Below are positions 2,408 through 62,008 of a stretch of DNA of 64,000 bases, piece by piece (the first letter of the stretch is position 1; the number at the start of each line of letters is the position of its first letter). The stretch is taken from assembly GCA_026770705.1 (NCBI GenBank), contig JANJGN010000210.1, forward strand, positions 62,001 through 126,000, read 5' to 3'. The DNA comes from Isurus oxyrinchus. Taxonomy: Eukaryota. Made by a program: the position numbers and the translations under genes. The notes under the pieces are model-generated. The model was not told the DNA's origin and made no database searches. It was given only the letters and a program-made list of their open reading frames with translations.

Positions 2408-2446
2408 CACACTGAAGGGAAACGCGGCAGTCACTGTACAAAAACC
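2408..2446 (+). promoter_or_regulatory. 23-RSS of V1
   Basis: CACACTG + 23-nt spacer + perfect ACAAAAACC. Confidence 0.93.
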
Positions 2447-4216
2447 TCGCTCCTGTTTATAGCCCCTGAACAGCTGCAGCGACCTGTCCAATAACACAGA
2501 GGAGGCACGACGGTTCAGAGCCAGTGCAGCAAATGGAAGCTGTGGGCTGGTCTTCCGTGGGCTTTATAAAACCCTTCATATTGTGGCTTTGATCAAAGAT
2601 TGTAACAGTCGCCGCATTAAGTATCCAATAGGAGAAACAGTCACTCGCTGAACGCGGCCTTTGTTGTGAGAAAACCTTCAGTATTGATTATAATTGTAGG
2701 CTTATAATCAGTTGAGCTGATTCGGATATTTTACCGAATATGTGTACATGTGAATCTGCTGTGTGACGACGGACCGAACTTTTAACAGTGATAATTCTTG
2801 AGTCTGTCGATCTTCCGTGCGGGAACGTATCTGTCAGGTCATACAAGCACACGAACAAGAGCAGGAGTAGGCCATTCAGCTCCTCGAGCCTGCTCCTCAA
2901 TTTAAAAAGATCATGGTTGATCTGATTATAAGCTGAAATCTGCATCCCACTTACCCCCGATAACCTATCACCCCCCTTTCTTTCGAAAAATATATCCACC
3001 TTTGCCTTAAAAATATTCAGTTATTCTGCTTCCACCGCCTTTTCAGGAAGAGAATTCCAAAGACTCACAAACCTCTGAGTGAAAAAACAAATTCCCCTCA
3101 TTTCTGTTTCAGATCAGGTCCCTGGTTCACTGTACTGCTGATACATCCAATGGCAAGAACAGACCAACGGAAGCAACACCTCCAACAGCAAAATCGGGTC
3201 AGAGGAGAGGTACAAACGGAAGCTGTGGCGGGGGATGCAGCAGATTGAAAACTGATAAAAGTGCGCGGCGGTGATAAGCTGCAGCCGGAACTGTTGGAGC
3301 GGAAATCGCGACGGTTGAAGCTCCAGAAACCTGTGAGCATCCTGCACCTGTTCACACATCAAATGATTGAGAGCAAAGAGTGCGGGAGGCGCAGGAAGGG
3401 AGCAGAATCATAGAAAGTTAGGGGACTGAATGAGGACTCCGCCTACTGTATCTGTGTCTATTTGAAAGACCCATCCCAATCGCTTTTCATACCTCACAAT
3501 TTCCACGTTGTTTTCACTTTTCAACTTATAATAATTCCGTACTGAAATTTGCGACTGAACCTTCTTCCCCCATCATTTCAGTCACTGTATTCCAGATGGC
3601 AACACATACAATGTAATAAATAAAACAGATCTTTTCATCTCTATTGTTTTCATGAAAATAGAAATGAATGGGTTATTGTATATTCTGGTGCTGGAGGAAA
3701 TTGCGACCTACTCTCAATAAAGGACAATTTTTGGCACATCAATCGAGTCTCTCTTCTGCCTTCTTTGTTACGAGGACATGTTCCCCTATTCAGTTCGCAA
3801 AAATGTTCCCCATCTGTGGTATCAATCTAATGTGCAGCGTCCGCACTTTCTCCAAACCCAGCAATGATTTTTACAAATATAACATCACACCGCAACATAA
3901 ACATCAGCCGCAACAAAGGCTGTGTCCAAACAGCTGCAATTAAGATTACTGGGGAACATTCATGTCTTGAAACGCATTTTAATGAGCCCCGAATCCTCTC
4001 AACAGCCCCATCCGAACACGGTTTGAACTGAATTCACCAGCGGAGGGCGACAAGCTCAAGCAGAGCGTCACTAAGTCAGGTGGTGGAAACGCCAAAGCCA
4101 ATAGGGATGGTTTCCTGAGTGAGGTCAGAATGAGCTGAACAGCCCCCGGGTTCCGTCTCTCGTTCTCAATCTCTGGCTCATTCCATTCACATTCACCGGG
4201 AGGGATTCATTCAGAC

Positions 4217-4744
4217 ATGTTTCTGATAATACTGGCGGTGCTGTTGGACAGTAAGTACTGGAATTAGTTAATCAAGGCAGAATAGAAGATTATTGTACAA
4301 AGATTGCGCTAGTAAGTAATACAATTAACGATCATAAATATCCATATGATGGACAGCTGGGTAGATAGGAGGTTCCACAAACTCACGGAGCTACAAACAA
4401 ATTTAGATCAACACTGTTTAACCGATTGATATTTCATTTCTCCACACACAGGCGGACTATGCGCAGATCCAATAACTCAGGCCCCGGTTTCAATGACGGT
4501 GTTAGAAGGTGGTTCAGTGCAGTTAGGCTGCGAATATACAGATCGGAATATGGAGTACATGCAATGGTATCGGCAGCAGACGGCACAGCCACCAAGATGG
4601 ATTATTACCAATATCATAGCACTGAAGAAAGACGTAGTTTCAGGACGATATCTGGCGGTTGCTGACAAGTCTCAAAAGAACGGTTACCTCAACATAAGCG
4701 AACTGAGTGTGGAGGACGAGGCGGTGTATTACTGTGCAGTTAAG
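4217..4744 (+). CDS. TRAV/TRDV: TCR V alpha/delta-type gene segment V2 (leader 4217-4250, intron 4251-4451, V exon 4452-4744), open frame
   Basis: Leader MFLIILAVLLD + GTAAGT; V exon DPITQAPVSMTVLEGGSVQLGCEY..MQWYRQQ..LNISELSVEDEAVYYCAVK. Confidence 0.9.
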
Positions 4745-4783
4745 CACAGCGTTAGATCACAGCTAGAACCCCGTACAAAAACC
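4745..4783 (+). promoter_or_regulatory. 23-RSS of V2
   Basis: CACAGCG + 23-nt spacer + perfect ACAAAAACC. Confidence 0.93.
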
Positions 4784-5552
4784 TCAACGAGCATTTAGAG
4801 CTTTCGTTTGTGCCTTGGCCAGCTGGAACGGTTTGATCCCGGGTTGCACAGAAGCACAAGAGACAGGTTTATTTATCGCACTTATCCTTGCTCAAATCCA
4901 CCGAAAAGCAGTATTGGGATTTTTTTTAAACCGTGGGATGTGGGATGTGGGCATTACTGGCTAGGACAGCATTGGCTCCCATTCCTTAACTGCCCTTTGT
5001 TCAGAGGGTATTTAAGAGTCAACCACATTGCTGGGTCTAGAATCACATGTAGGCCACGCAAAGGTGGCAGATTTCCTTCCCTAAACAACATTAGTGAACC
5101 AGATGAGTTTTTGCAACAACCGAAAATGGTTTCATGGTGGCGTGGTTGGACATGGTCATCATTAGACTTTCAATTGAATTCAAATTCCGCCATCTGCCGT
5201 GGTGGAGATTCGAACTCGGTTTCCCAAAGAATTAACCTGGGTTCTCAACATCACCAACCTAGCAAAATACCACCAAAGCGGTGCGTTTATCTCCATACCG
5301 CCATTTATACGATAAATAGCTCCAAACTGAACCGGAATATCGATTTGCCAACAGATGTAATGAAAGCTCTCAGAAGTGCAGCTCCTATAGTTGATAATTA
5401 GGGTTGTTCTTACAGAACCGTTAACTCAGGTGGACCCAGGGCGGAATGGTGGATGGGTGGATTGATCGGTTTTTTCTACCTATTTCCACAAGCAACGTTG
5501 TTTAATTTTCCTTGTATATATCATTATGTTAATTGGATTCTTGTTTTGACAG

Positions 5553-5872
5553 CTACTCTTTGTCGCTAGCTTAAAAAAAATCAGATGTTGGTTTATCAGG
5601 AACGCAACGTCAATCATTTTGCTTCACCATAACTCTACTTTCGCTGCAAATGAACTTATATTCTTGTACCGGCAATTCTCCAATCGAGCTCCCGAGCATT
5701 CGTCACCATATTCAGTGATGAAAGAGCTCAGGGAAGATTTAAAGTATCTGTGGACCGTGAGAAAGACCCTGGAACTCTCACCGTTCACTCTGTTCAGTTC
5801 TCAGACGCTGCTGTGTAGTGCAGTGTGGTAAAGCACGGGGAGGCAAGGAGGTGACGAGATTGTACTAGACCT
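5553..5872 (+). pseudogene. TCR V pseudogene (frameshifted, stop in YYC motif) with degenerate 23-RSS
   Basis: Acceptor TTTTGACAG; fragments LYRQFSNRAPE and QGRFKVSVDREKDPGTLTVHSVQFSDAAV*CSVVK; then CACGGGG + 23 nt + ACTAGACCT (5834-5872). Confidence 0.75.
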
Positions 5873-11323: not shown

Positions 11324-11348
11324 GCACTAACTGGAACTCTCAGTGTGG

Positions 11349-11412
11349 GGGTTTGGTACGGCATCCGTTATAGCTCTGCTGCAGTGTGGGCTGCATGGCA
11401 CCTAAATATAGA
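11349..11412 (-). pseudogene. 3' stub of a minus-strand TCR V plus RSS, truncated by Penelope insertion
   Basis: Minus strand LYLGAMQP then CACACTG-24 nt-ACCAAACCC (11349-11388); downstream flank 11210-11390 is homologous to the flank of the V pseudogene at 9880-10050. Confidence 0.7.
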
Positions 11413-11413
11413 G

Positions 11414-13638
11414 AAAAAAACAAAAAAACTGCAGATGCTTGAAATCCAAAACAAAAACAGAATTACCTGGAAAAACTCAGCAGGTCTGGCAGCATCGGCG
11501 GAGAAGAAAAGAGTTGACGTTTCGAGTCCTCATGACCCTTCGACAGAACTTGAGTTCGAGTCCAAGAAAGAATTGAAATATAAGCTGGTTTAAGGTGTGT
11601 GTGTGTGGGGGGCGGAGAGATAGAGAGAGAGAAAGGTGGGGGTGGGTGTGGTTGTATGGACAAACAAGCAGTGATAGAAGCAGATCATCAAAAGATGTCA
11701 ACGACAATAGTACAATAGAACACATAGGTGTTAAAGTGAAAGTTGGTGATATTACCTAAACGAATGTGCTAATTAAGAATGGATGGTAGGGCACTCAATG
11801 TATAGCTGTAGTGGGGGTGTTTTTTTATAATGGAAATAGGTGGGAAAAGGAAAATCTTTATAATTTATTGGAAAAAAATCGAAGGGGGAAACAGAAAGGG
11901 GGTGAGGATGGGGGAGGGAACTCACGACCTAAAGTTGTTGAATTCAATATTCAGTCCGGAAGGCTGTAAGGTGCCTAGTCGGAAGATGAGGTGTTGTTCC
12001 TCCAGTTTGCGTTGGGCTTCACTGGAACAATGCAGCAAGCCAAGGACAGACATGTGGGCAAGAGAGCAGGGTGGAGTGTTAAAATGGCAAGCGACATGGA
12101 GGTTTGGCTCATTCTTGCGGCCAGACCGCAGGTGTTCTGCAATGCAGTCGCCCAGTTTACGTTTGGTCTCTCCAATGTAGAGGAGACCACATTGGGAGCA
12201 ACGAATGCAGTAGACTAAGTTGGGGGAAATGCAAGTGAAATGCTGCTTCACTTGAAAGGAGTGTTTGGGCCCTTGGATGGTGAGGAGAGAGGAAGTGAAG
12301 GGGCAGGTATTCCATCTTTTGCGTGGGCATGGGGTGGTGCCATAGGAGGGGGTTGAGGAGTAGGGGGTGAGGGGGTTGAGGAGTAGGGGGTGATGGAGGA
12401 GTAGACCAGGGTGTCCCGGAGGGAGCGATCCCTTCGGAATGCCGATAAGGGGGGTGAAGGGAAGATGTGTTTTGTGGTGGCATCATGCTGGAGTTGGTGG
12501 AAATGGCGGAGGATGATCCTTTGAATGCGGAGGCTGGTGGGGTGATAAGTGAGGACAAGGGGGACCCTATCATGTTTCTGGGAGGGAGGAGAAGGCATGA
12601 GGGCGGATGCGCGGGAGATGGGCCAGACACGGTTGAGGGCCCTGTCAACGACCGTGGGTGGAAAACCTCGGTTAAGGAAGAAGGAGGACATGTCAGAGGA
12701 ACTGTTTTTGAAGGTAGCATCTTCCAAACAGATGCGGCGGAGGCGAAGGAACTGGGAGAATGGGATGGAGTCCTTACAGGAAGCGTGGTGTGAGGAGCTG
12801 TAGTCGAGGTAGCTGTGGGAGTCGGTGGGTTTGTAATGGATATTGGTGGACAGTCGATCACCAGAGATTGAGACAGAGAGGTCAAGGAAGGGAAGGGAAG
12901 TGTCAGAGATGGACCACGTGAAAATGATGGAGGGGTGGAGATTGGAAGCAAAATTAATAAATTTTTCCAAGTCCCGACGAGAGCATGAGGCGGCACCGAA
13001 GTAATCATCAATGTACCGGAGAAAAAGTTGTGGAAGGGGGCCGGAGTTGGACTGCAACAAGGACTGTTCCACATACCCCATAAAGAGACAGGCACAGCTG
13101 GGGCCCATGCGGGTACCGATAGCCACACCTTTTATTTGGAGGAAGTGAGAGGAGTTGAAGGAGAAATTGTTCAGTGTGACAACAAGTTCAGCCAGACGGA
13201 GGAGAGTAGTAGTGGATGGGGATTGTTCGGGCCTCTGTTCGAGGAAGAAGCTAAGGGCCCTCAGACCATCCTGGTGGGGGATGGAGGTGTAGAGGGATTG
13301 GACATCCATGGTGAAGAGGAAGCGGTTGGGGCCAGGCAACTGTTGATGTGACGTAAGGTGTCAGAGGAATCACGGATGTAGGTGTGAAGGGACTGGACCA
13401 GGGGAGAGAGAAGGGAGTCAAGATAACGAGAAATGAGTTCTGTGGGGCAGGAGCAATCTGAGACGATCGGTGTACCGGGGCACTTCTGTTTGTGGATTTT
13501 GGGTAGGAGATAGAAGCGTGCCATCCAAGGTTGTGCGACTATCAGGTTGGAAGCTGTGGGAGGGAGATCCCCAGAGGAGATGAGGTCAGCGACAGTCCTG
13601 GAAACAATGGCTTGATGTTCAGTAGTGGGGTCATGGTC
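11414..13638 (-). mobile_element. Penelope-like retroelement, 5'-truncated, frameshifted (left arm of inverted pair)
   Basis: ORFs 13261-13524, 12248-13339 (RT: DVQSLYTSIP, GTRMGPS, RYIDD) and 11922-12251 (GIY-YIG: VYCIRCSQCGLLYIGET..AEH). Confidence 0.93.
11511..11551 (-). ncRNA. Minimal hammerhead-ribozyme-like motif at Penelope 3' end
   Basis: AAGTT-CTGTCGA-A-GGGTC atgag GACTC-GAAA-C-GTC-AACTC: stem I, core with A6>U variant, stem II, GAAA, GUC triplet. Confidence 0.6.
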
Positions 13639-18272: not shown

Positions 18273-18308
<36 letters not shown>

Positions 18309-44478: not shown

Positions 44479-44606
44479 CTTCACCAGAGTGACGGCAGTG
44501 CTGTAGAAAATGCTCAGGAAGAACAGGATGATGAATGTGGAAGCGGTTGTCCAGATGTTGCCGTTATCATCCTCAGAGTCTTCAGTCCAGATACGGTCTG
44601 TGGAAT
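44479..44606 (-). CDS. IGHM: IgM TM1 exon
   Basis: (D)STDRIWTEDSEDDNGNIWTTASTFIILFFLSIFYSTAVTLVK with CART motif residues (T..F..LF.LS..YS..VT); AG/GT boundaries in correct phase. Confidence 0.95.
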
Positions 44607-45159
44607 CTACGGGGATATAACCGAGGAGATATAACTAGATTGATTATTAATCTAGGATATCATTTTTAAACATTTCCTTTACTCTTTCCTAAGTTATTAA
44701 TGTATTCCATGTTCAATGTATATCTCCTATTAAGTTCGTGACACTCAGTAACCCATCTCTGTAACTATCTCCACAGCCGTTCTCCCTTTACAATCTTTGT
44801 ACAGCCCGTGTCGGAAAATATGGCAACTTTTCTCCAGTATCAGTTTATTTTCGAACAATTTCGTATGATCTATTATTGGAGAATATTATGATGGGTATCA
44901 GGAGAGATTCACTGAGCTACTTATTTGGAAACTGTGAACGTTGCTTTTTAAAAGCTCGGATGTGAGTTCCCATCTTGTTTATCTATTTGTGATGGGAATA
45001 TTTGGTGCATCATTAACTTAAATCAGTTTCTCAGTAAGAGCATTTTTTCAGTGTGTTTATCGGGTTATTATGTAAAAGAGACAATTGCCGGAGGATATGC
45101 CATTAAAAAAGTCCATTTGAATTATACTTTCTTCAATAGTCTGGCGTTTGCGTTGTGCT

Positions 45160-46250
45160 TTAGCTTTTGTATGTGTGTGCATCAGTATCTCGCGCTTTGC
45201 ATTACTGTTTGTTTGTGTGTCCATAGGTGTGCATGTGTGTTAATGTGTGTGTTCATGTGCCAATGAGTGCTGATTTGTGTATTTTTGTGTCTGCATCTTT
45301 ACGTATATTTTGTTTTTCTGCTAATGTGGGTGTATGCGTGTGTTATTGTGTGTGTTTATGTCTTGATTTCCAAATTTACTTATTACTATCTGTGTAAATG
45401 TGTATTTACCTGTTTAATGTGTGCCTGCTAATATGAGTGTTAATGTTTCTTTTTGTGTTCCACGTGTATGTCAGCATATTAATGTCTGGGTCACAGCGTC
45501 TGTGTGTGTGTGTGTGTATGCGCGTGTGTGTGTGACACAGTGAGAGAGAGAGTTTTTAATATGTGCATTTGTGTGTTGATCGATATTTAGAACTATGTAT
45601 CAATGTGTTTTTATGTTTTCATATGTACTAACGTGTGTTTTTGTTTTCTAGTGTGTATGAGTATATTCATATTTGTGTCTACATGTGTGTTTGTGAATGT
45701 GTTAGTCTGTTCTTCTGTGTTTTTGTGTCTGGGTGTCATCTGCTCATATGTGTGCATGTGTTAATGTGTGTCCATGCATTTGTTTTAATTTGAACGATAG
45801 TGTGTGTCTTTATGTCTGGATTTATGTCATTGTGAACGTGTAATACTGCATATGCTAAAACTTACATTTGTTCTTTGTGTCCTTGTATGAGTCTGCCTGT
45901 GTGGTTTTATCTGTTTGTGTGTGTGTGATTGTGTATATGTGTGTGAGTGAGTGTGTCTGTGTGTGTATTTCTGCATGTGTGTGATTGTGTGTACGTGTGT
46001 CTGTGTATGTTTGTGTGTCTGCACCCATGTGTTTGTGATTGTGCGCATATGTGTGCGCGTGTGTATGCACGTGTGTCTGTATTTGTCTATGAGTGTCTGC
46101 CTGTGTCTGCCTGTGTTTGTGTGGCTGCGCATGTGTGGGTGTAAATGTGTCTGCCTGTACCTGTGTGTGTTTGTCTGTGTGTCTGTGCCTATGTGTGTGT
46201 GTACGCATGTTTGTGTCTGTCCATTTTTGTCAGCTGTGTGTGTTTTTACT
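45160..46250. repeat. Degenerate (TG)n simple repeat in Cmu4-TM1 intron
   Basis: Long TG/CA-dominated tract. Confidence 0.9.
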
Positions 46251-46719
46251 ATTTTCCCGAATTTTACCAGTACCAATGATCGAGTCTGACCTTGATGTTG
46301 AAAATTTTGGTGAATATTTTCAATGTTCTGTGCATAAACATGTTTTCTGTGAGATGCAAGGTGATATCAGGTGAACGAATGCAAACAATCAATCATGTGC
46401 CTCATAAGATTCAGGGACAGAACCTTGAACAACCCAGGGAGGATTCAATCACCAGTATAGATTCGGATTATGGGAAATTAATCTTAGCATAAGCTTAACA
46501 GGAACAAGAGTATTAAAACATCTTCAAATTATGTTGCATAAATATATGTTTTGCAACATCCTAAGCATGATGAGAGTTTAAAATCTGTGGCCAGTAAGCT
46601 GGAAGCCAACGTGGACTGTTGGTAACTGAGTCCTGACAGTAGAGACCGTTTCCTTCCAGATTCTCTGCTCGGTGAGTGAGGGTCCAGTGAGCTAATAGTT
46701 TTGTTCTGTCTGGTTGCCT

Positions 46720-47200
46720 AAACAATTTGCCTTTCAGTTCTCTCTGCTGAGAAGGTGGAGACACATCGGGTTAACCAATGACCTTCCTCTTCTTTTTGTT
46801 TAGCAAGTGGAGGTAAGACTGGCTTAAAATTTTCCTTTCAGTTTTCTCTGTTGGGGAAGTGGAGGTACAGCGGATTATCAATTTCCCTTCCCCTCTCTCC
46901 GTTGGGAAAGTGGGATACAGTGGCTAAACAATTTCCCCCCCCCCCCACCCCCCCCCCCCCCCACCACCCACTGTTGTGGAAGTGGAGGTGAAGTTAGTTA
47001 ACAATGTCCCCTTCCCCTCTCTCTGTTGGGGAAGTGGGGGTAAAGTAGGTTAACAATTTCCCTTCCCCTCCCTCTGTTGGGGAAGTCGGGGTACAGCGGG
47101 TTAACAACTTCCCTCCCCCATCTCTCTGTTGGGCAAGAGCGAGTACAGTGTATTAACAATTACCCTCCCCCCTCCCTGATGGGGGATTGTTGGGACATGT
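46720..47200. repeat. About 55-bp tandem repeat (around 8 copies) carrying GGGGAAGTGG
   Basis: Unit GGTTAACAATTTCCCTTCCCCTCTCTCTGTTGGGGAAGTGGAGGTACAG repeated with variation. Confidence 0.85.
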
Positions 47201-47625
47201 TTCTGTGTGACTCCACTTCAGTTCCCAGTGGGTGTGGTGCAGCAGTTTAAAGCTGACGTCCATTTTAAAGGGATGGACAATAAGAGAAGCAGGAACACCG
47301 AGATCTAAATGCGCTGTGTTTGTTTGTCTGAAATGGGAATTGTCAGATTTCTCCTCAGTGGGAGGAGAGCTGGTGAAGTTATTTTACAGAATCCCTTAAT
47401 GAATGAGCTTTACTCTGTCTCTAACCCTGGGTGTATCTGAGCTGCGAGCACTGGGTGTACAAGACTTGGGTATGAGCCCTGTAAATATTCGATTTTAACT
47501 AAACAGGTCTAACATCAGCAAAAGTGGAAAACAACATTGATTATACAATTGTGTATTTAAATCACGATTGGAGAAAAGGACTTTATTATTTGTTTATTGA
47601 GGTTTGAAATTTAACCGAGAAATTC

Positions 47626-49043: not shown

Positions 49044-49664
49044 CTGTGAGACAGAAATTAATATCAACCAAAGTTTCACCTTCAGAATGAGGACAGCAGT
49101 GTTCAGTCTTCATTCTCTAAAGGAGAATAAATCACCTTGGACATATCAACCTCTAACTATCGTCTTAAATCTTCTTTATACAATGGAAAACCAGTTTGGT
49201 CTGTTTAAATCGTTCTCATAATTTAAGACGTTTAGCCCCGGTAACATTCTGATGAATCTGCATTGCCCCAGTCCCAATACAAATATATTATTGCTGGGCC
49301 CTGGAACGCAGTACTGAAAGCTGTTTTATAAATAGGGTGGATGCACTTTCCAACACTCTATCTTGAAGCTGTTACCAGTGAAGGGTTCCAGACACCTGCC
49401 TCTCCAAATATGATCAGCTGACTCAGGGTAAAGCTGATGTCAAGTCCACCTCACTCACTCTGTGACGTCAATGCAGAGACGTGATGTGATAAAATCCTGA
49501 ATGGTGAACAAACCGAATGCAGCCATTACATCGGAATTAAATACCGACTACATGATAGTAAATTGGAAGTTGTTCCGTGCTTTCTACTAACACCAATAAA
49601 TTCCTCATTTGATTAACATCAGAGAGCAGAATGATCTATTGCTTCCTCGGTTTGTATTTCTTAC

Positions 49665-49979
49665 CCTCACACTTGGTGGCGTTTCGACTTTGGGTGACCC
49701 CTTGGTGAGTGACCTGACAGGTATAGACCGCGTCGGTGAACCATTCCCCAGCGGAGACTTTCAGCCGACTGGTCGCCGAGAAGTTCCCCTTCACTTCAAA
49801 GGCGGGAGAGGTGACAATTCCTGAATCCATGGATTGTCCATTCTTCAGCCACTTCACGGTGATTGGCTTCGGACGGAAATCGATGATTGAACAGACGGCG
49901 ATTGCAAATTTGTTGGTTGTGATTTCTTCCCGGGAACTCACGGTGAGGAGAACAGTTGGAGAGAAGATGTCAGGAGGAC
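49665..49979 (-). CDS. IGHM: IgM Cmu2
   Basis: [43 protein letters not shown]; AG/GTAAG boundaries. Confidence 0.96.
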
Positions 49980-50191
49980 CTTCAAAAAATACAGGTTAAA
50001 CATTTCTTGCAGAATAAATTGATAAAAGATACAATTAATTCCTACATTTTTATAGGTTCTTTTCCGTTAATAGACACTAACCGAGAATTTGCAGGGAGCA
50101 AATCTATGCGAAGCACTATAAATGTATTATAACCAAGGCCCTATACAGGTCATTCCCAGCCTCTGTTTCTCACAGGTTCCCCAACACTTAC

Positions 50192-50491
50192 AATGCATTT
50201 CAATGCTCTTGTCTGAGCCGCTGTGTCGAACCTCACACTTGATTTTGCTGCATTCCCCCTCTGACTCGGTGATGGTTAACTGGCTGCTCAGGGTGTAGGT
50301 TCCCTTCTGGTTTCTCACTGACGGGTAAGTCTTAAATCCAGTGGGGATCTGCTGCCCATCTTTCTTCCAGGTCAAGCTGGTGATTTCTGGGGAGTAATCC
50401 ATCGCCAAACAGCCGTAGGTGACGGAGCCATCGGTGTTGTGTTGCTGACAGGAGGAGACCAGGCTGTAGAGAGTGGGCGAAGACGGTGTCA
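50192..50491 (-). CDS. IGHM: IgM Cmu1
   Basis: [45 protein letters not shown]; CAG/GTAAGT boundaries. Confidence 0.96.
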
Positions 50492-51039
50492 CTGGGAAAG
50501 AATGGCCGATTGAACAAGTTAGACTCTGTGATTTGTGATCATTAAGTAACCATACAACTCAAAAATTGACAACAACTATAAATATATCCTAATATATTCC
50601 AACTAAAACCCACATCCACATTTGATCATTTATTATTTCCATCATTTGGTGACCCTCACTTGTCGGTTCCCTCTTTAGAAACCCACACTTGTTTTCCTGC
50701 CTCTATCCCATTACTAAAAGAGAACATTTTGTGTCATCTGAATGACGTACCTTTCATTGGATTAAAACGGAAGAGCAGAGCATCTTCCCCATTATTTCGC
50801 CACCATTTATTTCTCAATCAACAGCACTTAGTGAGAGAGAAATTCTCTCGTCATTCAGATCATTGCAGTTTGGAAATTGGCTCTGTTCAAATTGACTGAT
50901 GCCCCCTCCCCTCGCCACGTCCTCCCAAAACAAAGAATATCAACGGCCCTTCGAAAGTACCTTTGTAATGGTAACTATATAATGACCATAGAACTCTAAA
51001 CTGAATACCAGTTACAGTAAGTACGACAGTTTCCAATTG

Positions 51040-52430
51040 TATGTACATGTGAACATGCGGATCAGTAGCAGGAGTAGGCCATTTGGCCTCTGGGGCCTCC
51101 TCCACCATTCACTCCGGTCATAGCTGATATGATTGTGACGTTAACTCCACGTTCCCGCCTAATCTCCGCTAACCTTTGACTCCCTTGTTAATGAAGAATC
51201 TCTCTACCTCTGCCTTGAAATTTTAATGACTCCTCCTCCATCCCTCTCTGGGGAAGAGAGTTCCAAAGTTTCATGACTCTTTGAGAGAAAAATAAAATCC
51301 CCTCATTTCCGTCTGAAATGAGAGACCTCTTATTTTTAAACCGTGTTCCCTATCGTTAGTCTGTCTCACAAGGGGAAACATCCTTTCAGCATCCACCCTG
51401 TCAATTTCCCTCAGGATCTTACATGTTTCAATAAAATCAGCTCTTATTCTTCTAAACTCCGATGGATACAGGCCCAGCCTATCCGAATTTCCACATAAGA
51501 TAACCGACGACACCTCCCAGTATCATTTGAATTTACATTCTCTGAACAACTTCTAATGCTTTTACACCCTTTCTTAAATGAGACCAAATCTGTACACAGT
51601 AATTCAGAAGAGGTCTCATCGACACTCTGTTAAACTGTAACATAATATCCTTCCATTTATATTCTATTCCCCTTATAATAAATGCCAACACTCCCTTTGC
51701 CTTCCTCATCACTTGCTGTTCCTGTATTATAACTTTTTGTGATTCATACACCAAGGGATCCACATTCCTCTGTACCTCAGGGTTCTGCAGTCTCTCTTCC
51801 TTTCAATAATATGCTGCTTTTATATTCTTCCTGCCAAAGTGGACAAGTTTATATTTTCCCACATTATACTCCATCTGTCATTTTTTGCCCACTCACTTAA
51901 CCTATTGATATCCCTTTGCTGACCCTTTATCCCCTCTTCACCATTTACTTCCCTATCTGTCTTTGTGTCATCAGCAAATTTAGCAAATTCATTCAGTCCT
52001 TTCATTCAAGTCATTGATATAAATTGTAAATAGTTGAGGCTGCGGCAATGATCTCTGTGGAACTCCATTTGTCACATCTTGCCAACCTAAAATAACCAAT
52101 TTATCCCTGCTGTTTCCTGTTAGCTAACCAAACTTCTACTCATGCTGAAATGTTACTACTGACACCATTATTTTGTGCAGTAACCTTTGATGTGCCACTT
52201 TGTCAAATGCCTTCTGGTAGCCCAAGGGCAGCACACCCACAGGTTCTCCTTTATTCATGCTCCTTGTTACTTCCTCGAAGGACCTCAAATAAGTCAGCCA
52301 AACATGATTTCCCTTTCACAAAATCATGACGGGTTTGCATAATTGCATTTGAATTTTCTCAGTGACCCGTGATAGATTCCTGAATAATCGATTCCAGCAT
52401 TTTCGCTCGGACAGATGTTAAGCTAACTGG
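51040..52430 (-). mobile_element. CR1-clade LINE fragment in J-Cmu intron
   Basis: AKFADDTK, RPLLNYCVQIWS, LGLYPSEFRRIRADFIE. Confidence 0.88.
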
Positions 52431-52559
52431 CCTGCAGATGAGAGCCTTTCCCCGGGAATGGAAAGGATTTCAGGAGGGGGAGAGACAATGAGGGAGAGAT
52501 AGAGAGAGAGTTAGAGAGAGTGGAGCCCAGGGTATTTGGTGCCTCCACTCGCAACTGCT

Positions 52560-54060
52560 TTTGCCCAGCTCTCCCCACTATAGACTGGCTCTCAGCCCTT
52601 CCCCCACCCTCCGCCTCTCTGCTCTTTCCCCTCCACCTCTCTGCCCTTTCTCCCCCGCCTCTCTGCCCCTTCTCCCCAAGCTCTCTGCCCTTTGTCCTCA
52701 GCTCTCTGCACTTACTCCACGGCTCTATTCGCTTTTGCCCAGCTCTCTGACCCATTCCATTGGCTCACTGACCTGTCCCCTGGCTCGCTGACCTTTCCCC
52801 CTCAGCCCTTTCCCGTCTTCCACCTCTCTGTCCGCTCCCCCCTCTGCCTCTCCGCTCTCCCACCTCCCTGCCCTTTCCGCCACCCATCTCTCTGCCCTTT
52901 CCCCCTACTGCATCTCTGCCCTTACCCCCTGCCTCTCTGCCCTTATCCCCCGCCTCTCTGCCCTTTTCCCAGCTCACTGCCCTTTCCATCGACTCTCTGC
53001 CCTTTCTATCACCTCTCTGCCCTTCCCCCTCTGCCTCTCCACTCTTACCTCCCGCCTCTATGCCCTTTCCCCCTCCGACTCTCTGCCCACCCTCCTCTCT
53101 GTCCTTCCCCACTCTCCCTCTCTGCTCTGCCTCCTCCCTGCACCTTCCCCCTCCCGCCTCTCTACCCTTTCCCCCAACCCGCCTCTCTGTCCTTTCCCCC
53201 AGCCAGCTCTCTGCCCTTCCCCCTCCCACCTCTCGGCCCTTTCTCCATCCCGCCTCTCTGCCCTTACCCCCCACCTCTCTGCCTTTACCCCCTCTCCTCT
53301 CTGCCCTTTCCCTCACCTCTCTGCACTTTCCCCCCTCTGTCTCTATGCCCTTCCCCCCCTCCTCTCTGCCCTTTCCCCCTTTTCCTCTCTAACCACCCTC
53401 CCCTCTGTCCACCCCCCTCTGCCTCTCTGCCCTGCCTCCTCTATGCCCTTTCCCTCTCTTGCCTCTCTGCCCTTTCCCCTACCTGCCTCTCTGCCGTTAC
53501 CCCCCCCCCCCCCCGCTTCTCTGCCCTTTTCCCCACTCACCTCTTGGTCCTTTCCCCCTACCGCCTTTCTGCCCTCCCTCCTCTCTACCCTGTCTCTCTC
53601 CCGCCTCTCTGCCCTGTCCCTCACCCGCCTCTCTGCCCTTTCCCCCCCGCCTCTCTGCCCTTTCCACCACCCACCTTCCTGCCCGTTCCACCTGCCACCT
53701 CTCTGCCATTTCCCCTTACATCTCTGCCCATACCATCCCCCGCTTCTCTGCCCGGTCATCCCTCTGCCTCTCTGCCCTTCCCCACCCCCCACCTCTCTGC
53801 CCTTTCACTGGCTTGCTGATCTTTCCCCCTGCTCGCTGACCTTTGCCCCATCCCAATGCATTTTCTGCTGGATACCTGCCCTGTTCTCGGACTCTCTACC
53901 CTTCACCCGCAACCCTCCCCGGCTCTCTGCCATTTCCCCCACCTCCCTGCCCTTTCCCCCAGGCTCTCCGTGCTTTCCAACGAAGCTCGTCGCTCCCTTC
54001 AGCCATGCTCCACTTTCTGGCACTACTAGGCCTCAGGCCTCGCATGCAGGTCTCTCTTCC
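52560..54060 (-). repeat. About 1.5-kb purine/pyrimidine-skewed repeat, G-rich on the IgM sense strand (GGGGAAAGGGCAGAGAG-like units)
   Basis: CTCTCTGCCCTTTCCCC repeated dozens of times on the + strand. Confidence 0.92.
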
Positions 54061-54099
54061 CTGCAGTTCCCACCCTCCCACACACCAATTTATGAAAAG

Positions 54100-54975
54100 T
54101 GATTGAGTGAGTGAGCGCGTGCATGATTGACAAAGTGAGGGTGGCTGAGTGACAGATCAAGGGTGGGTGTCTGAGTGAGTGAGGGTGCGTGGGTGAGTGA
54201 AGGTGTGAGTGAGGGTGGTGCTGAGTGGGCGTGGGTAGGTGTCTGAATGTGGGTGAGTGAGAGTGGATGAGTGAGTGTGAGGGTGGGTGATTGAATGAGA
54301 GTAGCTGAGTGGCTGAGTGAGTGTTGGTGGGTATGTGAGGGTGGGTATGTGAGTGAGGGTGAGTGGGTGTGTGAGGGCGGGTGGATAAGATATTGAGTGT
54401 CAGTGAAGGTAGGTGAGTGAGGACGGGAGGGTGAGTGAGGATGAGTGAGTGAGGGTGAGTGAGTGAAGGTTAAAGTAATTGATGGTGAGTGAATGAGGGT
54501 TTGTGAAGCTGGGTGAGTGGGTGAGGGTGAGTGAGGGTGGGTGAAGGAGTGAGATTGAGTGATGGTGAGTGAATGAGTGTGGGTGAGTGAGGGTGATTGA
54601 GTGAGGGTGAGTGAGTGATGAGTGAGTGAGGGTGGGTGAGTGAGGGTGATTGAGTGAGTGTGAGTGAGGGTGAGTGATGAGTGTGAGTGAGGGTGAGTGA
54701 GTGAGGGTGGGTGAGTGAGGGTGATTGAGTGAGTGTGAGTGAGTGTGAGTGAGGGTGAGTGAGGGTGAGTGAGTGAGATTGAGTGAGGGTGAGTGATTGT
54801 GGGAAGTGAGGGTGAGTGAGTGAGTGAGTGAGGGTGAGTGATTGTGGGTAGTGAGGGTGAGTGAGTGTGAGTGAGGGCGAGTGAGGGTGAGTGAGTGAGA
54901 TTGAGTGAGGGTGAGTGATTGTGGGTAGTGAGGGTGAGTGAGAGAGTGAGGGTGAGTGATTGTGGGTAGTGAGGG
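54100..54975. repeat. (GAGT/GAGGGT)n simple repeat
   Basis: GAGTGAGGGT tandem units. Confidence 0.92.
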
Positions 54976-55551
54976 TGCCCTGGTGCTGCAGGCTCATCAA
55001 GGCGATGTTTCTCCGGATGATTTTCTGCTCCGGCTCAGCTTTCCATTGTCTGTTGTCCACAGCCGAGCTGAGGGCTCCTCCATTCGGCTCCATCACCTCC
55101 ACCTCCTCCTCTTCCTCTCCATAGATCCTATCCTGATTCTCCATATTGACCAGCTTTCAGTAACACCGGCTGCATAAAGTCAGGCAGCAGTGTAGATCAC
55201 TGGCCAGCTGCTTTAATGCCGATGCCTTTCTTTAAGAAACCCGTGTCAGTGCGCGAATAGGCAGACTGAGGGGGCTGGAGGGGAAGGGTACAGCAAAACC
55301 AGGAAGGGCCGTGCAGGCATCTTGCACCAAGTGTGCACCAGTATTGGGGATCCAGGCGGCCGTGGTCTCAGTCACATCCCTCCACTTTTCTTGTTTCTTT
55401 GTGTTTGGTTCAACACTTGGAAATTCTCCACATATATAGTGAGGTCACCTGTGTAATTTCATTTTACCCAAAAAGGCATCAGAAACGGAACAATGAACAT
55501 GCCTGCAGCTTAAAGGATCTTCTTTCTGAAATTAACATTTTCAGCCCACTT

Positions 55552-55741
55552 NNNNNNNNNNNNNNNNNNNNNNNNNNNNNNNNNNNNNNNNNNNNNNNNN
55601 NNNNNNNNNNNNNNNNNNNNNNNNNNNNNNNNNNNNNNNNNNNNNNNNNNNNNNNNNNNNNNNNNNNNNNNNNNNNNNNNNNNNNNNNNNNNNNNNNNNN
55701 NNNNNNNNNNNNNNNNNNNNNNNNNNNNNNNNNNNNNNNNN
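55552..55741. other. Assembly gap (N run) in J-Cmu intron, followed by (GA/GT)n repeat to about 56460
   Basis: 190 N characters. Confidence 0.99.
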
Positions 55742-58700
55742 GCGTGAGAGTGTTTGAGAGAGAGAGCATGTGTGTGTGATAGAGAGAGAGTGAATGTGTT
55801 TGTGTATGTGTGAGAGTGTGTGTGGGGGTGTGAGTGATATGTAGTATATGTAGTATAAGTACGTGAGAGAGAGTTTGTGTGAGAGTAGAAAGAGTGTGTG
55901 AAAGAGAGAACCAGTGTGTGTGTCAGAGAGAGAGTGTGTGTGCGTGAGAGAGCGAAAGAATGAGAGCGAGTGCGTGTGTGAGAGGAACAGTGTGTGTGTG
56001 TGTGTGTGAGGGAATGTGAATGTGTTTCTGTGTGCGTCAGAGAGAGAGATTGAGGATGTGTGTGAGGATGTGAGAGACAGTGTTATGTGTCTGTGTGTGA
56101 CAGAGGGGGAGAATTGAGAGTATGTATGTGTGTGTGGCAGAGAGGGTGTATGTATGTGAGATATAGAGTGGGTATGTGTAAAAGAGAGAGAGTGTGTGCA
56201 TGTGTTTGTGTGAGAGCGAGAGAGAATGCATGTGTGAGAGTGCAGGTGTGAGAAAGAAAGAGTGCATGTATGTGTGTAGGAGATAGTGTGCACGTGTTAA
56301 AGGGAGTTTGTGTGGGAGAGAGTGAATGTGAGTGTGTGTGTGACAGAGAGAGAAAGAGAGAGTGTGTGTCTGTCAGAGAGAGTGCATGAGAGAATGTATG
56401 TGCACGTATGTGAGAGAGAGCGTGTGTGACAGAGAGTGAGCGAATGAGGGTGTGTGGTAAAGAGACTGAGTGTGTCGAGGTAGATCAGCCACGATCTTGC
56501 TGAATGGGGGGCAGGATCGAAGGGCTGAATGTCCTCCTCATGCTCTCATTTCTGTAATTCATTCCTCTCCCTGCAGGTGGCAATCCAATGGCTCAGTTTT
56601 TGATGGTGGCTCCTTTTCCCAAATCCCCCGCAGCTGGTTATTTGTAGTGGGAGTCTGGTATTTGTCCATTTCAATCGTTTAAATAACTCTGATCAGATCA
56701 GAACAGGCACTGCTCTCTGGAGCCTCACTGTCACTCCCTGATTCTGTTTGTTCTGAAATTGTGCTCAAGTTCAGGTCACTCACATTCAATGATTTTCTGA
56801 TACTCAAAATGCTTAAACATAATTAATTCATTAAAATTTATACATGTTCTCTGCAGAAATATTGTTAAAAACAGTTAACGTGTGTCATTTCAACCGAGCA
56901 ATGGAACAATTTATTTTCGCAGATCTGGCTCGAAAACCCACGGCCAGTTAGTTCAATGCTGATTCAGTTTGTTTGACCTCTGCAGGGAGAAGACTCCCAG
57001 GTCAGGGACAGGACACGTTAAGATATGGATTAAATTCCCCACTCCTCCCCCAGTCACTCCTGTCATCAGCTGCAAGGGTGGGATTCAACAGAAAGCCAAC
57101 TCTCCACTAAACTGTCAAACACTCCGGGGCAGGTACAGCACTGGTTTGACATAAAATAAAACTCTCTCTACATTGTTCCATCAAATATGCCCAGGAGAGG
57201 GTTCAATCCAGTTTTGATATAAGTGCTGTACTGCAGGAGCCGGTCAGAGGCTGGGAATTCTGTGGCAAGTAATTCAACTCTTATCGCCCAAAGAAAACTG
57301 ACCATCTACAAGGCTCAAGTCAGGACTGGGATTGAATAGTTTCCACTTGCTTCAATGTGTGAAACTTCAAAAAACCCCAAGAAACTCCATACTATCCAGG
57401 ACAAAGCAGCCCACAGAATTGGTACCCCATCCACTACCTTAAACATTCCCTCCCTCCCCCACCAATGCACAGTGACAGCAGTGTGTGCCATACACAAGAT
57501 GCACTGCAGCAACTCGCCAAGACTCCTTCAAAACCCGCAACCTCTCCTAACTAGAAGGACAAGGGCAGCAGGTGCTTGAAACATCGCCACCTGTATGTTC
57601 CCCTCCAAGACACTGAAAATCCTGATTTGGAACTATATCGCCGTTCCTTCACTGTCAATGTGTCAAAATCCTGGAACTCCCGACCTAACAGCACTGTGAG
57701 TGAACATGCAGCAATTCAAGGAGGCGGCAGTTCAACACTTCCAAGGATGGGCAATTAGGATGGGCAACAAATGCTGGCCTTGCCAGCGACCCCAACATCC
57801 TATGATAGGATTAAAAATAAGATACAAAGTAATTTCTTCCTCCGCATTGTCCAATCAAATAGGTCAAGGACTGCGACAGCACAGATTAACATAGGATAAA
57901 ACTCTCTCTGCATTGCCTAACTGATCTCCCAAGACAGAAACATCACTGGCTTAGAATCGACCAAATCTCCTTCGACAGTCTGTCTGTCGTTTCTGAACTG
58001 TCCTTTCTGACTGTCACAATGGGTTGGGCATCTCATTTCTGAGGCGCCTGGTCAAAAAGTCAAACTTTCATATTTCTCACAAATACAAGTCTTGTGAAGA
58101 AATTAATCGAACTGCACTTCCTGAAATACAGGAGAGTGAACCAGAAGGTTAACAACCAACCAGGAAGATTCCTGGTCCCAGCACAGTGACCATGCGCACA
58201 GAAACAGAACAGACAAAAACGGTGCAACAATCGAATTCCCAGCAGATAGATCTGTTCAATTTGTCCATTTCATTCAAGCTGTTTGATTCCAATTGATCAA
58301 CAGTCAACTTGTTACAATTATTCTATAACTTCTTTGAAATTAAACTGATTTTCATTTCAAGTCCATTTGAAGTCCATTTAATTCTCCGTCTGACTCAAAT
58401 CTCCAAACAATGTATGATTTAAGTTACCCTGAAAATGAGCACAGCAAATCCTACAGATTCAGGATAATTAGTTGTTCGTAATAAAGACTCAATGACAGGG
58501 TAAGAATTAAACAAATCAGGAAACATTCACATTGAAAACCGATTACACACTGATTTCTTTTGATTTTAGGTATAAATATAACCAATAAAAACATCAAGGC
58601 GAAACACATTATCGAGCTGAGCACAGCTGAGTAAGAAAAGTATTCTTTTCTGAATTCATTTTGGATACAATTAAAAATTCTCTCCACCCTTTGAGATTTT

Positions 58701-61133
58701 GCATTCACTATAATGTCCAGTACACTATTTAATTGTTGGAGTTCATTTATGTTGAATTAATTATCACTAATATTATATTGTAAGTTAATTACCTTGTTAT
58801 TGTCAATTCATTTTCTTGTTAGCTGATTTCTACTTTATAATAAAAATAGTTTTCAATGATTGAAAATTTGTTTCTCCTTGGTACTTTGTGAAATAATTGA
58901 GGTTTATTTAAATCAACCTTACACTGAAACAATGTTATACAATAAACTTCACATTACTAGATGGTAACATTCAGGCAAGTATATCAATTTTACTTATATC
59001 TGATCAATATTTACTATTGTATTTTTACTTCTCCTGCTCTGTTTTAACGGACAAAATTATAAACTATGCGTTTCTGAAGAGATTGAGAAATCATAAGTTC
59101 CATCTATTCTCATCAAGCAATTCACACGACAAATTTATGAGTTGAATATTTGAAACACTTTCAAATCTGACCGGGGTCACATCGCATTAACTGTCGATGA
59201 GGTGTAATATCATTTGTTTACTGAATTAATCTTGTCTTAACTCCAAGCTACATATAAACAAATCTTCCTGGCAGTTACTTATTATCAATAAAATTGCTTC
59301 CTAGATAACAATCCCTATAATTTAATTGTTAATTATATTATTCACTGAAAAAGATCCAAATTGATCAGTATAAAACTTGATGAGAACAATTCATTCAGAT
59401 CATCTGCACCACTGAAATATTACTGGCAAATTGATTCCAGATTTTGTCCTTCAAGTTAATATTTAATAAGAATTAAGCATGAATCTCAGATATAATCTGT
59501 ACTTCTCCTATAATTCTATTCTGTGCACAGCACAGCAATAGGAGACAGGATGTTGTTATTAAGTTCAAAACTAAAACTAATGTTTGCAATTAAATTAACC
59601 TGTTCGAATTTCAAGCTTTTACTTGTCAATCTCTATTCAAATGCAGTCTGCACCTTCCCACAGTTCAAAAAATGTAAGAACAATTCCTTTACTGCCAGCG
59701 AATTACACCCCCCAGTAAACTGTTTAGAATTAGATTAGTGACAATTATCTCGCAATCCAAATCCCAATGACATTGAAGGAATAATATGGTTATGGCTGCA
59801 CAGAAAGAATGTAATAACCGGATAGACATATTGCCAAACTGCAATGTCAAACTCTTCTTTAAGTCAATGCAAATGTTATCAGGGATATAAAAAAGTAATT
59901 TAAAATCTCTTTTGAAACTGAACAATTTTGTAGTCAATATATTCTTACTGAAATTTTTTCAACCATAATCACAAAATGTTTCCAGCCTAAAAACTTTCCC
60001 GATCATGTTAATTGTGCGCAGAGCACAGCAGAATTGTGAAAGGCGATTAATGATCAATTAGGTTAATATGAAAGCTGTTCCATCAATATGGAGAAATATT
60101 ACCACATTATAATTGTTTGAATTGTATTAATTTTACTCTACAATTTGAAAACTTGGTAATTATATAGTTTCTGATTGCAGTAACGAATTATGTTCTGAGT
60201 GAGCGTCATAATCCATGGTTTAGTTTAATCTGCAATTACCACTTAAAATAAAGACAAAATGTTCTAACACATTTTAAACGCTTTTTTTCCATTTCTGAAA
60301 CCTGTTTGTTTTCTGCATACAATCGCGCTTCAAGCAGATACAAACGCGTAGGTTGCTTCAATTCAATCGCAAAACGTGTAACCGCTCAATGTCACCGAGT
60401 TTAAACAAAGCAGAAACAATGCAGAACCGCCAAACCGTTTCATAAATTCTACTTGTTCAAAGTCACCCAGACACACAATCTCCTCAGCAGAAAATACACC
60501 AAAATCACATCACTGAGGGGCTGAAACCCGTTTCATGGAGAAGCAGCTCAATTCTACAAACGCTTCCAACAGAATTCATTGTAACATTGCAAGAAAATCT
60601 CAATATCGAATCCAGACAACCGCTCGTCACCAAATGAATGAATAATTAAACTAAACAGAAATATGGAATAATGTCAACAGCATTCTGGAATGCTGTAGGC
60701 GGAACATGTTCAATAAATTATTATTAAAACTTAAGCATATTTGCTAAAATTGGGTTTGATTTCAAATCTATTTAAATCCTTGTGCAACAGATGGTAAAAC
60801 CCGCAGCCATTAGATGTCACCGAGATTAAACAATGCAGAAACGTCAAACTGTTTTCACAAACGTTAGATATTTCAAGTAGCCCGGCCACACAGTATCCTC
60901 AGCAGGTAAACACCAAATCACAACGACCAAGGTCTCAATCCATCAGCAGCACTTCTTATCAAGACACAGCGGAATTATATAACTCAATTTCAGCAGAATC
61001 ACATGAAACATTGTAAAAATTCTACATACAGAATCCACCAAACCCAGATTTCATTGGCTGAATAAATTATTAAAATAGACAAAAAAGCAAAGACTCAAAT
61101 AAAACAGTTACTAAATAAATGTGTGGTTCTTAC

Positions 61134-61181
61134 CGGCAGTCACTGTCATCATGGTCCCTTTCCCCCAGTAGTCCATAGCTT
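61134..61181 (-). CDS. IGHJ: IgH JH segment (AMDYWGKGTMMTVTA)
   Basis: WGxG motif, donor G|GTAAG; RSS CACAGTG (61182-61188) + 23 nt + ATAATAACT (61212-61220). Confidence 0.95.
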
Positions 61182-61549
61182 CACAGTGTTACATTCCCTG
61201 GGCTGTGCCATATAATAACTGGCCCTGCACGAAAAAGACAGAAATCCACCATTATTTTAAATATTCATAAGTCAGAGGCAAAGCAAGATCTCGATGAATC
61301 TTCACGAAATTATATTTGCGTATGTGGATATCTTTAGCTATTTATCAATGATCCTCATGTTTTATAATTCACAGAATAACACATAAACATTTTATTGAAT
61401 TCACCAACTGATGAATGCATAATTATCACAACTTTTCCATCTTAAACCATGCTTTTTGGGCAGTGCTGAGTAGAAATAATACTTCATTGTAAATATAGCA
61501 GGATTGTAAAAGCGAGCACTGAACCCGGCAGACTCAATTAGTGCTGAGG

Positions 61550-61618
61550 GGTTTTTGTATTCTTAGTAACTGCTGTGCCACCCAGTATATCACAGCGAGA
61601 CACATCATGTCAAATACT
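61550..61618 (-). other. IGHD: IgH D2 segment (coding 61578-61590, ATATACTGGGTGG) flanked by 12-RSS and 12-RSS
   Basis: + strand GGTTTTTGT-12-TGCTGTG [D] CACAGCG-12-TCAAATACT. Confidence 0.93.
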
Positions 61619-61928
61619 GCGGCAGACTGTTCACTGTAAATGCAGAGATTTAATTTCACTGCGCTCACAAAAACCTGATTCCGACACACCTAAGAGTGAA
61701 TCAGTGAGATATTTCAGCTTGTGCTGGTCATTATATTTATAAATATGATTGGAGTTCTTTAAAAGCCTCTGTGAAGATTTAGCGTGTCCGTAAACACAAA
61801 CAAAGCAGAAGACTTTTATATATTTTTGCAAGCCAATATTACTTATACCCATTATTTTATTTAGCTCCTATTTTCTTTGACTTTTCCTGTTGTGATCGTG
61901 ATCACCAATTTGAACAAACTCCTTCTGA

Positions 61929-62008
61929 GGTTTTTGTATGAGGATGTCGCTGTGCACAGCACTGTGACCCCCTGTAGTATCACAGTGAAATACACCCGCA
62001 CAAAAACT
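61929..62008 (-). other. IGHD: IgH D1 segment (coding 61967-61980, ATACTACAGGGGGT) with 5' 12-RSS and 3' 22-RSS
   Basis: + strand GGTTTTTGT-22-CACTGTG [D] CACAGTG-12-ACAAAAACT; the 12/22 then 12/12 D arrangement is the shark IgM pattern. Confidence 0.95.

Follow-up and report, generated by a model that had tools for sequence, protein, structure and literature searches.

In elasmobranchs, clusters of IgM, IgW, and IgNAR genes show linkage to TCR alpha/delta within one antigen receptor complex, and TCR alpha/delta-type V exons between shark IgH clusters have already been published (PMC12227049). Sharks also form VH-to-TCR-delta trans-rearrangements and have TAILV, as described by Criscitiello 2010, Deiss 2019, and Ott 2021, cited here through PMC12227049, PMC5931798, and PMC6795676. 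In the nurse shark, 78 rearrangements lay inside the minilocus, as did the partial ones, all but possibly 1 of 97, in an assay whose VH-intron and JH primers are blind to joins of TCR V to D (PMC2435157). A layout in which a V segment can join only by inversion is known from the mouse, where Trbv31 stands alone at the 3′ end of Tcrb (PMC10772921).

The present study concerns a 64,000-nucleotide stretch of a contig from Isurus oxyrinchus, referred to as the window, in which two V genes of TCR alpha/delta type, V1 and V2, lie ~57 kb behind an intact IgM gene, in opposite orientation and ~40 kb past its TM2 exon (Table 1). The IgM minicluster is complete. Its segments follow the order VH(23)-(12)D1(22/23)-(12)D2(12)-(23)JH inside ~2 kb, which is the elasmobranch IgM minicluster layout, Cmu1-4 are open, and the secretory tail, TM1, TM2, and splice sites are all present. 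The nurse shark IgM minilocus likewise has a single VH, two D segments, and a single JH in 2 kb at ~400-bp spacing, with Cmu downstream (PMC2435157); in contrast to it, the VH nonamer of the window carries two changes more than the VH nonamer most frequent in this genome. No RNA dataset was listed for the V1/V2 stretch, which is silent on expression. RNA contigs from four of five runs chosen by species label, probably from other individuals, matched positions 47000-64000 with spliced leader-V, JH-Cmu1, Cmu1-2, Cmu2-3, and Cmu3-4 junctions that are not assignable to the window cluster. Two nonamer bases mark the window VH; at both, the contig depth of runs X1 and X2 consisted entirely of the usual base, which is uninformative about function.

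Table 1. Segments, exons, and joining signals of the window
Feature	Position	Strand	Remarks
V1 leader exon	1990..2026	+	phase-1 donor GT at 2027; read from sequence
V1 exon	2118..2407	+	open, TCR alpha/delta-type V domain; 91% aa to C242:351805
V1 23-RSS	2408-2446	+	CACACTG-23-ACAAAAACC; heptamer 6/7, nonamer 9/9
V2 leader exon	4217..4250	+	read from sequence
V2 exon	4452..4744	+	open, TCR alpha/delta-type V domain; 88% aa to C242:335576
V2 23-RSS	4745-4783	+	CACAGCG-23-ACAAAAACC; heptamer 6/7, nonamer 9/9
TM2	44331-44339	-	IgM membrane exon
TM1	44479-44606	-	IgM membrane exon
Switch zone	44500..47500	.	C301-like (left) to C151-like (right), informative sites
Cmu4 and secretory tail	47626-48017	-	open
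Cmu3	48732-49043	-	open
Cmu2	49665-49979	-	open
Cmu1	50192-50491	-	open; matches named shark IgM heavy chains
JH	61134-61181	-	
JH 23-RSS	61182-61220	-	nonamer 6/9
D2 3′ 12-RSS	61550-61577	-	nonamer 9/9; faces V1/V2
D2	61578-61590	-	12-RSS on both sides
D2 5′ 12-RSS	61591-61618	-	CACAGCG/TCAAATACT; heptamer 6/7, nonamer 6/9
D1 3′ RSS	61929-61966	-	spacer 22 bp
D1	61967-61980	-	
D1 5′ 12-RSS	61981-62008	-	CACAGTG/ACAAAAACT; heptamer 7/7, nonamer 8/9
Resident VH 23-RSS	62378-62416	-	CACAGCG-23-ACTAGATCA; heptamer 6/7, nonamer 5/9
Resident VH V exon	62417-62721	-	open
Resident VH leader exon	62848-62905	-	open

V1 and V2 each possess a split leader, an open V exon with a YYC end, and a 23-RSS. 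Their closest nonidentical relatives belong to the V array at the TCR alpha/delta locus of contig C242 and share a strand with D, J, and C segments arranged there as in TCR delta and alpha, where the C-delta and C-alpha labels derive from position and from matches to unnamed or “uncharacterized” proteins. Searches of longer proteins returned no longer relative of V1 and two gene models only for V2, a search of representatives gave no close relative of V1 among the 150 matches listed (best identity 44%), and PDB searches mixed antibody and TCR alpha matches at low identity, from which the class of V1 and V2 is not assignable. Blocks of C210:0.3-73 kb match C242:289-353 kb with ~90-96% identity, and the V block itself is 4-10% diverged, which makes it likely that the V1/V2 block is a copy of the V block preceding the TCR delta/alpha locus, duplicated from the array upstream of TCR delta into a field of IgM miniclusters. 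C242 also holds an IgM cluster, at 45-63 kb. The combination in one region of IgM miniclusters, interposed TCR alpha/delta-type V genes, NAR-TCR-type cassettes, and an IgH-like V near D-delta is that of the described elasmobranch complex (PMC12227049). However, the available part of that report does not treat the interspersed V genes at the level of their RSSs or consider their use by IgM, whereas here many of them are open with intact 23-RSSs. Relatives of V1 and V2 are dispersed among VH matches on C26, C140, C151, C152, C210, and C301; 19 of 30 V2-family copies are open, and genes of the two families among the IgM clusters have dN/dS values of 0.33-0.73 against their paralogs.

The joining signals are not chance matches, because every one of them ends a recognizable V, D, or J segment. 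As read from the sequence, the V1, V2, and D1 5′ signals point in the same direction, and those of V1/V2 and of D1 5′ all score as strong, so that a compatible 12/23 pair between V1/V2 and an IgM D is present in cis. Joining of V1 or V2 to D1 would invert 59.6 or 57.2 kb, respectively, and would place the V gene before D1-D2-JH-Cmu on a single strand. An initial annotation of this DNA had proposed just such an inversion of ~60 kb, and the elements on which it drew, namely the perfect nonamers of V1 and V2, the 5′ 12-RSSs of D1 and D2 on the minus strand, and a resident VH nonamer matching at five of nine positions, were all recovered at the positions given. It had overlooked that the convergent 3′ RSS of D2 also permits V1 or V2 to join by deletion, with loss of JH and Cmu, and that the JH and D2 5′ nonamers match at only six positions. 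V1 and V2 have three 12-RSS partners inside 60 kb and, since no TCR D or J was found near them in C210:1-216 kb, the closest 12-RSSs available to them are those of the IgM D segments. The arrangement is reminiscent of Trbv31 in that V1 and V2 lie 3′ of constant exons, on the opposite strand, with their RSSs oriented as the D 5′ RSS. Trbv31, however, is situated in its own locus next to E-beta (PMC10772921), whereas V1 and V2 are of a different receptor family, face competition from a VH at 435 bp from D1, and occupy a place that is not kept in paralogous clusters: an intact V is retained there in C301 only, while in C151 and at C26:35.3 Mb the position is taken by a V2-like gene that has a stop and whose RSS is broken. 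As in the VH-TCR-delta trans-rearrangements of sharks, a 23-RSS V of one family would be joined, within a linked locus, to a 12-RSS D belonging to the other; those chimeras are reported from transcripts and combine an Ig V with a TCR C, whereas the reverse chain is here predicted from RSS geometry. Joinable geometry is also common. At least 11 of 40 VH matches lie within 100 kb of an open gene of the V1/V2 families that is oriented for joining and has a nonamer of 8/9 or better, a count that covers two V families and includes copies that are not independent; for 29 of the 40, no open gene of these two families is found within that distance.

The initial annotation had further taken the RSS of the resident VH to be the weaker one. 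As a mismatch count this holds (5/9 versus 9/9); JH and D2 5′ in the same cluster score only 6/9. Among 30 VH loci, 20 nonamers match at 7/9, five at 8/9, five at 5/9, and none at 9/9; the form in the window, ACTAGATCA, is present in three, and the usual form is ACAAGAACA. The proposal was to lose ground if other functional clusters had the same nonamer, and this has happened in part: two further intact VH genes share it, in clusters that have the stop-bearing V2-like gene at the V1/V2 place, while on C301 copies of V1 and V2 with 99% and 98% amino acid identity face a VH whose nonamer has the usual 7/9 score. The weak nonamer does not travel with V1 and V2. The contrast between strong TCR V signals and weaker VH signals is locus-wide, because all 19 open V2-family copies score 8/9 or 9/9, and the perfect nonamers of V1 and V2, considered as something special, proved to be usual in the V family. 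Comparison of informative sites shows, in addition, that the window is mosaic, with sequence of two paralogous units and a changeover between V2 and VH. Left of ~44.5 kb the sites favor C301 (55 versus 9 and 35 versus 6 in the last two bins), right of ~48 kb they favor C151 (20 versus 6, 31 versus 4, and 34 versus 2), and the mixed zone between spans ~3 kb. The idea that the weak VH nonamer evolved to favor V1 and V2 was rejected on the basis of the nonamer distribution, the V2-family RSS survey, and the mosaic window. The VH signal may truly be weaker, as T at nonamer positions 3 and 7 is rare in the TCR J signals of this genome (1/95 and 4/95, respectively); neither ACTAGATCA nor ACAAGAACA is among the top-scoring nonamers tabulated, perhaps not in full, in the supplement of PMC12711392, which cannot rank the two.

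We consider it probable that the block holding V1 and V2, two intact V genes of TCR alpha/delta type, was duplicated into the IgM minicluster field, that the neighboring IgM cluster rearranges internally, and that inversion is at most a rare by-product. Deletion of the 435 bp between VH and D1, which are convergent and ~130 times nearer to each other than V2 is to D1, would out-compete a 57-kb inversion. If used, V1 and V2 would be joined over long range to TCR D-delta or J-alpha in thymocytes, by analogy with the IgM VH segments reported to join D-delta. The 5/9 nonamer would reflect drift in one sublineage of clusters, and unequal crossover or assembly would have brought the VH that bears it beside V1 and V2. 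Counting against this reading, strong RSS pairs in the mouse support inversional, diffusion-based joining (PMC11153149), the V1/V2 and D1 5′ signals being strong here, and genes of the V1/V2 families among the IgM clusters often remain open with their RSSs intact. A far stronger role for these genes, in which they are a real second V supply whose inversion onto D1 or D2 yields expressed V(TCR)-D-D-JH-Cmu chains, seems to us very unlikely. The geometry and the RSS pair allow it, as do intact leaders, exons, and Cmu, the Trbv31-like layout, and the proximity of the IgM D segments. Yet the resident VH competes at close range, the convergent join to the D2 3′ RSS would lose JH-Cmu, the weak VH nonamer is independent of V1 and V2, and, in 17 database proteins with Cmu1 (a weak sample, mostly gene models, of which three look cDNA-derived), the V domain before Cmu1 was of VH type in 10 of 10 cases and of TCR type in none. 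General considerations would also speak against such a supply, in that B cells would keep their TCR V genes closed and would retain a mu chain lacking a light chain. VH-to-TCR-delta joins are common in sharks (PMC12227049), which favors it, whereas nurse shark thymocytes rearrange IgH without detectable Ig transcripts (PMC2435157).

Those same thymocytes leave room for a weaker form of the proposal that is compatible with the reading we prefer. Joins of TCR V to IgM D in thymocytes are possible, if short of probable, as rare and mostly silent DNA accidents, some inverting and others deleting JH-Cmu. TCR V genes and IgH miniloci would both be open to RAG in these cells, three partners lie inside 60 kb, and interlocus TCR hybrids are reported in normal human lymphocytes. 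In nurse shark thymus, IgH is widely rearranged, with V-DDJ forms in which the D1 5′ RSS stays free and with 60% of Group 2 and Group 4 IgH genes rearranged, mostly partially; against this, long-distance IgH joins are rare or absent in the nurse shark (PMC2435157). It is rather unlikely that V1 and V2 are recent duplicates left stranded, joined to nothing and yet to decay. The block is indeed little diverged from C242, neighbors within it carry stops (C210:49.5 kb and 60.7 kb), and 11 of 30 V2-family and 16 of 30 V1-family copies are broken, but leader, frame, and RSS are kept in both genes, and V1 has a dN/dS of 0.57 against its C242 counterpart, with 15 changes, too few to decide. Equally doubtful is that the pairing of V1/V2 with the weak-nonamer VH is an assembly join of two near-identical paralogous units: the change from C301-like to C151-like sequence would be expected of one, but IgM clusters exchanging sequence by gene conversion or unequal crossover would yield the same pattern, the mixed zone is ~3 kb long, and TCR V genes beside IgM are certain regardless, being seen on C301 and C242 as well. 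Of the initial proposal, then, compatibility with the joining rule and the single transcriptional orientation stand, and the layout is like that of Trbv31, while the weight of the proposal is reduced by the commonness of the geometry, the nonamer that is not tied to V1/V2, the far nearer VH, and the confinement of nurse shark IgM joins to the minilocus (PMC2435157).

No report of a TCR-V–Cmu chain was found in the literature; the reciprocal chain may have been looked for in Criscitiello 2010, Deiss 2019, or Ott 2021. With its layout, the window provides one more example of the shark antigen receptor complex. Its addition is modest: many interspersed TCR-type V genes are open with strong RSSs, which makes their partner, be it D-delta/J-alpha at long range, IgM D, or none, a well-defined question. 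If, very improbable as it is, the dozens of intact TCR-type V genes among the IgM miniclusters were used by them, through inversion or deletion onto D1 or D2, so that IgM heavy chains bearing a TCR V domain were expressed, then V sharing between antibodies and T-cell receptors would be two-way, and an exception would exist to the minicluster-only rearrangement of shark IgH. If IgM D segments are not real partners, the region would be a natural test of what bars RAG from TCR signals that are strong and lie 57 kb away from an active IgM cluster.

The recombination signals (RSSs) to which the initial annotation had drawn attention proved correct when both strands were scanned and then re-read by coordinate (see table). 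Their geometry permits V1 and V2, the TCR alpha/delta-type genes near the left end of the window, to join the IgM cluster, but the product envisaged, a V(TCR)-D1-D2-JH-Cmu heavy chain, is itself unsupported. Joining of V1 or V2 to the 5' signal of D1 or D2 is an inversion of 56.8–59.6 kb, while joining to the 3' signal of D2 is a deletion in which JH and Cmu are lost; VH reaches the D1 5' signal by a deletion of 435 bp.

Recombination signals of the window and receptor segments of the TCR contig C242 (x/7 and x/9, heptamer and nonamer matches to consensus)
Feature	Location	Strand or orientation	Remarks
V1 23-RSS	2408	+	nonamer 9/9
V2 23-RSS	4745	+	nonamer 9/9
D1 5' RSS	61981	-	heptamer 7/7, nonamer 8/9
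D2 5' RSS	61591	-	heptamer 6/7, nonamer 6/9
VH RSS	62416	-	heptamer 6/7, nonamer 5/9
Lone IgH-like V with 23-RSS	C242:584,988	+	~5 kb upstream of D-delta-like segment
D with 12/23 signals	C242:590 kb	as V1/V2 relatives
J segments	C242:590-608 kb	as V1/V2 relatives
First C exon	C242:617 kb	as V1/V2 relatives
Long J array	C242:660-743 kb	as V1/V2 relatives
Second C	C242:749.5 kb	as V1/V2 relatives
Repeated cassettes	C242:385-548 kb	opposite to D-delta/J-delta	at least 8, ~21-24 kb apart

The IgM cluster would ordinarily be joined as VH-D1-D2-JH through short deletions, with V1 and V2 most likely either supplying TCR alpha/delta over a long distance or having no partner. Nurse shark joins stayed inside the minilocus in 78 rearrangements and, with one possible exception, in all of 97 partial ones, and IgH is widely rearranged in thymocytes in which Ig transcripts were undetected (PMC2435157); a review describes shared orientation of cluster segments as enforcing deletional joins (PMC5192425). 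Compared with open paralogues, dN/dS is 0.48–0.73 for V2 (18 pairs) and 0.33–0.57 for V1 (12 pairs, excluding one that lacked synonymous changes), values that mostly reflect older history. Several observations make rare TCR-V-to-IgM joins in thymocytes credible, if somewhat doubtful. The nurse shark primers, placed in the VH intron and JH, are blind to a TCR V partner, and those thymocytes contain V-DDJ intermediates in which the D1 5' signal is still free (PMC2435157). Mouse Trbv31, a V at the 3' end of its locus, joins physiologically by inversion (PMC10772921), and strong RSS pairs favor inversional joining (PMC11153149). A TCR V in an expressed antibody is far less credible, and indeed very improbable. 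Seventeen database proteins contain Cmu1, and none of the 10 V domains that precede it there (three of which look cDNA-derived) is TCR-type, all being VH-type. No report of such a shark chain was found among the papers listed by the literature searches or in the passages checked of PMC5931798, PMC6795676, and PMC2191748.

The joining geometry is not special. In three of four placements of a V gene around a cluster, the coding joint stays on the chromosome. From 60 loci examined, 29 open V1/V2-family genes combine a 23-bp spacer with an 8/9 or 9/9 nonamer; among 40 VH hits scored from 100 candidates, 11 have such a joinable gene (open, nonamer at least 8/9) within 100 kb, a count that covers the V1/V2 families only, takes each VH hit as a cluster, and includes copies that are not independent. 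The joinable pairs comprise 14 inversional and 2 deletional cases. In 14 of the 16 pairs the V1/V2-family gene is on the strand opposite to VH (contigs C26, C140, C151, C210, and C301), an excess behind which a few duplicated ancestral units may lie. On contig C210, of which the window covers 62001-126000, other TCR-type V genes occur near the window cluster at C210:45, 47, 54, 193, 204, and 206 kb. The one at C210:192.9-193.4 kb (L105) is upstream of the window VH on the same strand, and a simple deletion could bring it to D1; its RSS combines a 9/9 nonamer with a spacer of 24 bp.

A tie between the weak VH nonamer and V1/V2 is ruled out, since on contig C301 the same V1/V2 block faces a 7/9 VH. 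At C151 and C26:35.3 Mb, where the VH nonamer is also 5/9, the V2-position gene has a stop and a broken RSS. The window is ~99% like C301 across most of 1–44 kb and ~99% like C151 from 48 kb onward, with informative sites changing from one to the other within 44.5–47.5 kb. Two paralogous units were brought together, through crossover, conversion, or a join made in assembly, to give the pairing of V1/V2 with a weak VH. For ~8 kb at 11400-19400 the C301 counterpart, as retrieved, offers no long match, and this stretch is likely an insertion, the flanks being 99% identical on both sides.

Among the best 30 VH loci, including that of the window, all V exons are open and none has the consensus nonamer; the sequences are ACAAGAACA (20, of which 18 were parsed directly and 2, where the parse had shifted, were read by eye), ACAAAAACA (5), ACTAGATCA (3), and CCAAGATCA (2). 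Nonamers of 8/9 or 9/9 are found in 19/19 open V2-family and 11/14 open V1-family copies, and the contrast between strong TCR and weaker VH signals is therefore general. Positions 3 and 7 distinguish the window VH nonamer from the commonest form. At both, T is rare in TCR J nonamers of this genome (1/95 and 4/95), making some signal loss plausible. In mouse VH, RSS score is a poor predictor of usage (PMC11153149).

Both V1 and V2 have split leaders in frame and open V exons. The IgM cluster is open throughout (leader, VH, D1, D2, JH, Cmu1-4, secretory tail, TM1, and TM2), with Cmu1 74–83% identical to named shark IgM heavy chains. The starts of VH CDR1 and CDR2 (DLGIYWM and YDS; 62560-62625, minus strand) resemble the Scyliorhinus gene models P0155 and P0156, which appear germline-joined, more than most VH of this genome.

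The closest relatives of V1 and V2 are the C301 copies (98–99%), followed by those on C242 (91% and 88% at the amino acid level, respectively). We provisionally take the segments of C242 to be TCR delta, TCR alpha, and NAR-TCR, given the order in which they lie and their similarity to the database proteins P0034 (unnamed) and P0002 ("uncharacterized"). Its lone IgH-like V is a candidate TAILV or resident VH, and, with its cassettes oriented as they are, inversion is the expected mode of joining for the V that supports them. A 5-kb stretch at C210:172.5-177.8 kb (L103-L104), ~84% identical to each NAR-TCR-type cassette, may be a copy stranded among IgM clusters. Between C210:0.3-73 kb and C242:289-353 kb there is a block-wise match of about 90–96%, so that V1 and V2 stand at the end of a TCR V block that has been duplicated. 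An IgM cluster is present on C242 as well, at 44.9–63.0 kb (L176-L178), in which VH runs directly into D-like sequence followed by a D2 3' 12-RSS, with JH apart; judged from this order it looks like a germline-joined VDD-J, and its C exons look damaged. IgM and TCR delta/alpha thus share one contig in this genome. Linkage of IgM to TCR alpha/delta is described in four elasmobranchs, with some TCR alpha/delta-type V exons sitting between IgH clusters (PMC12227049), and the arrangement of V1 and V2 beside IgM is of an already known kind.
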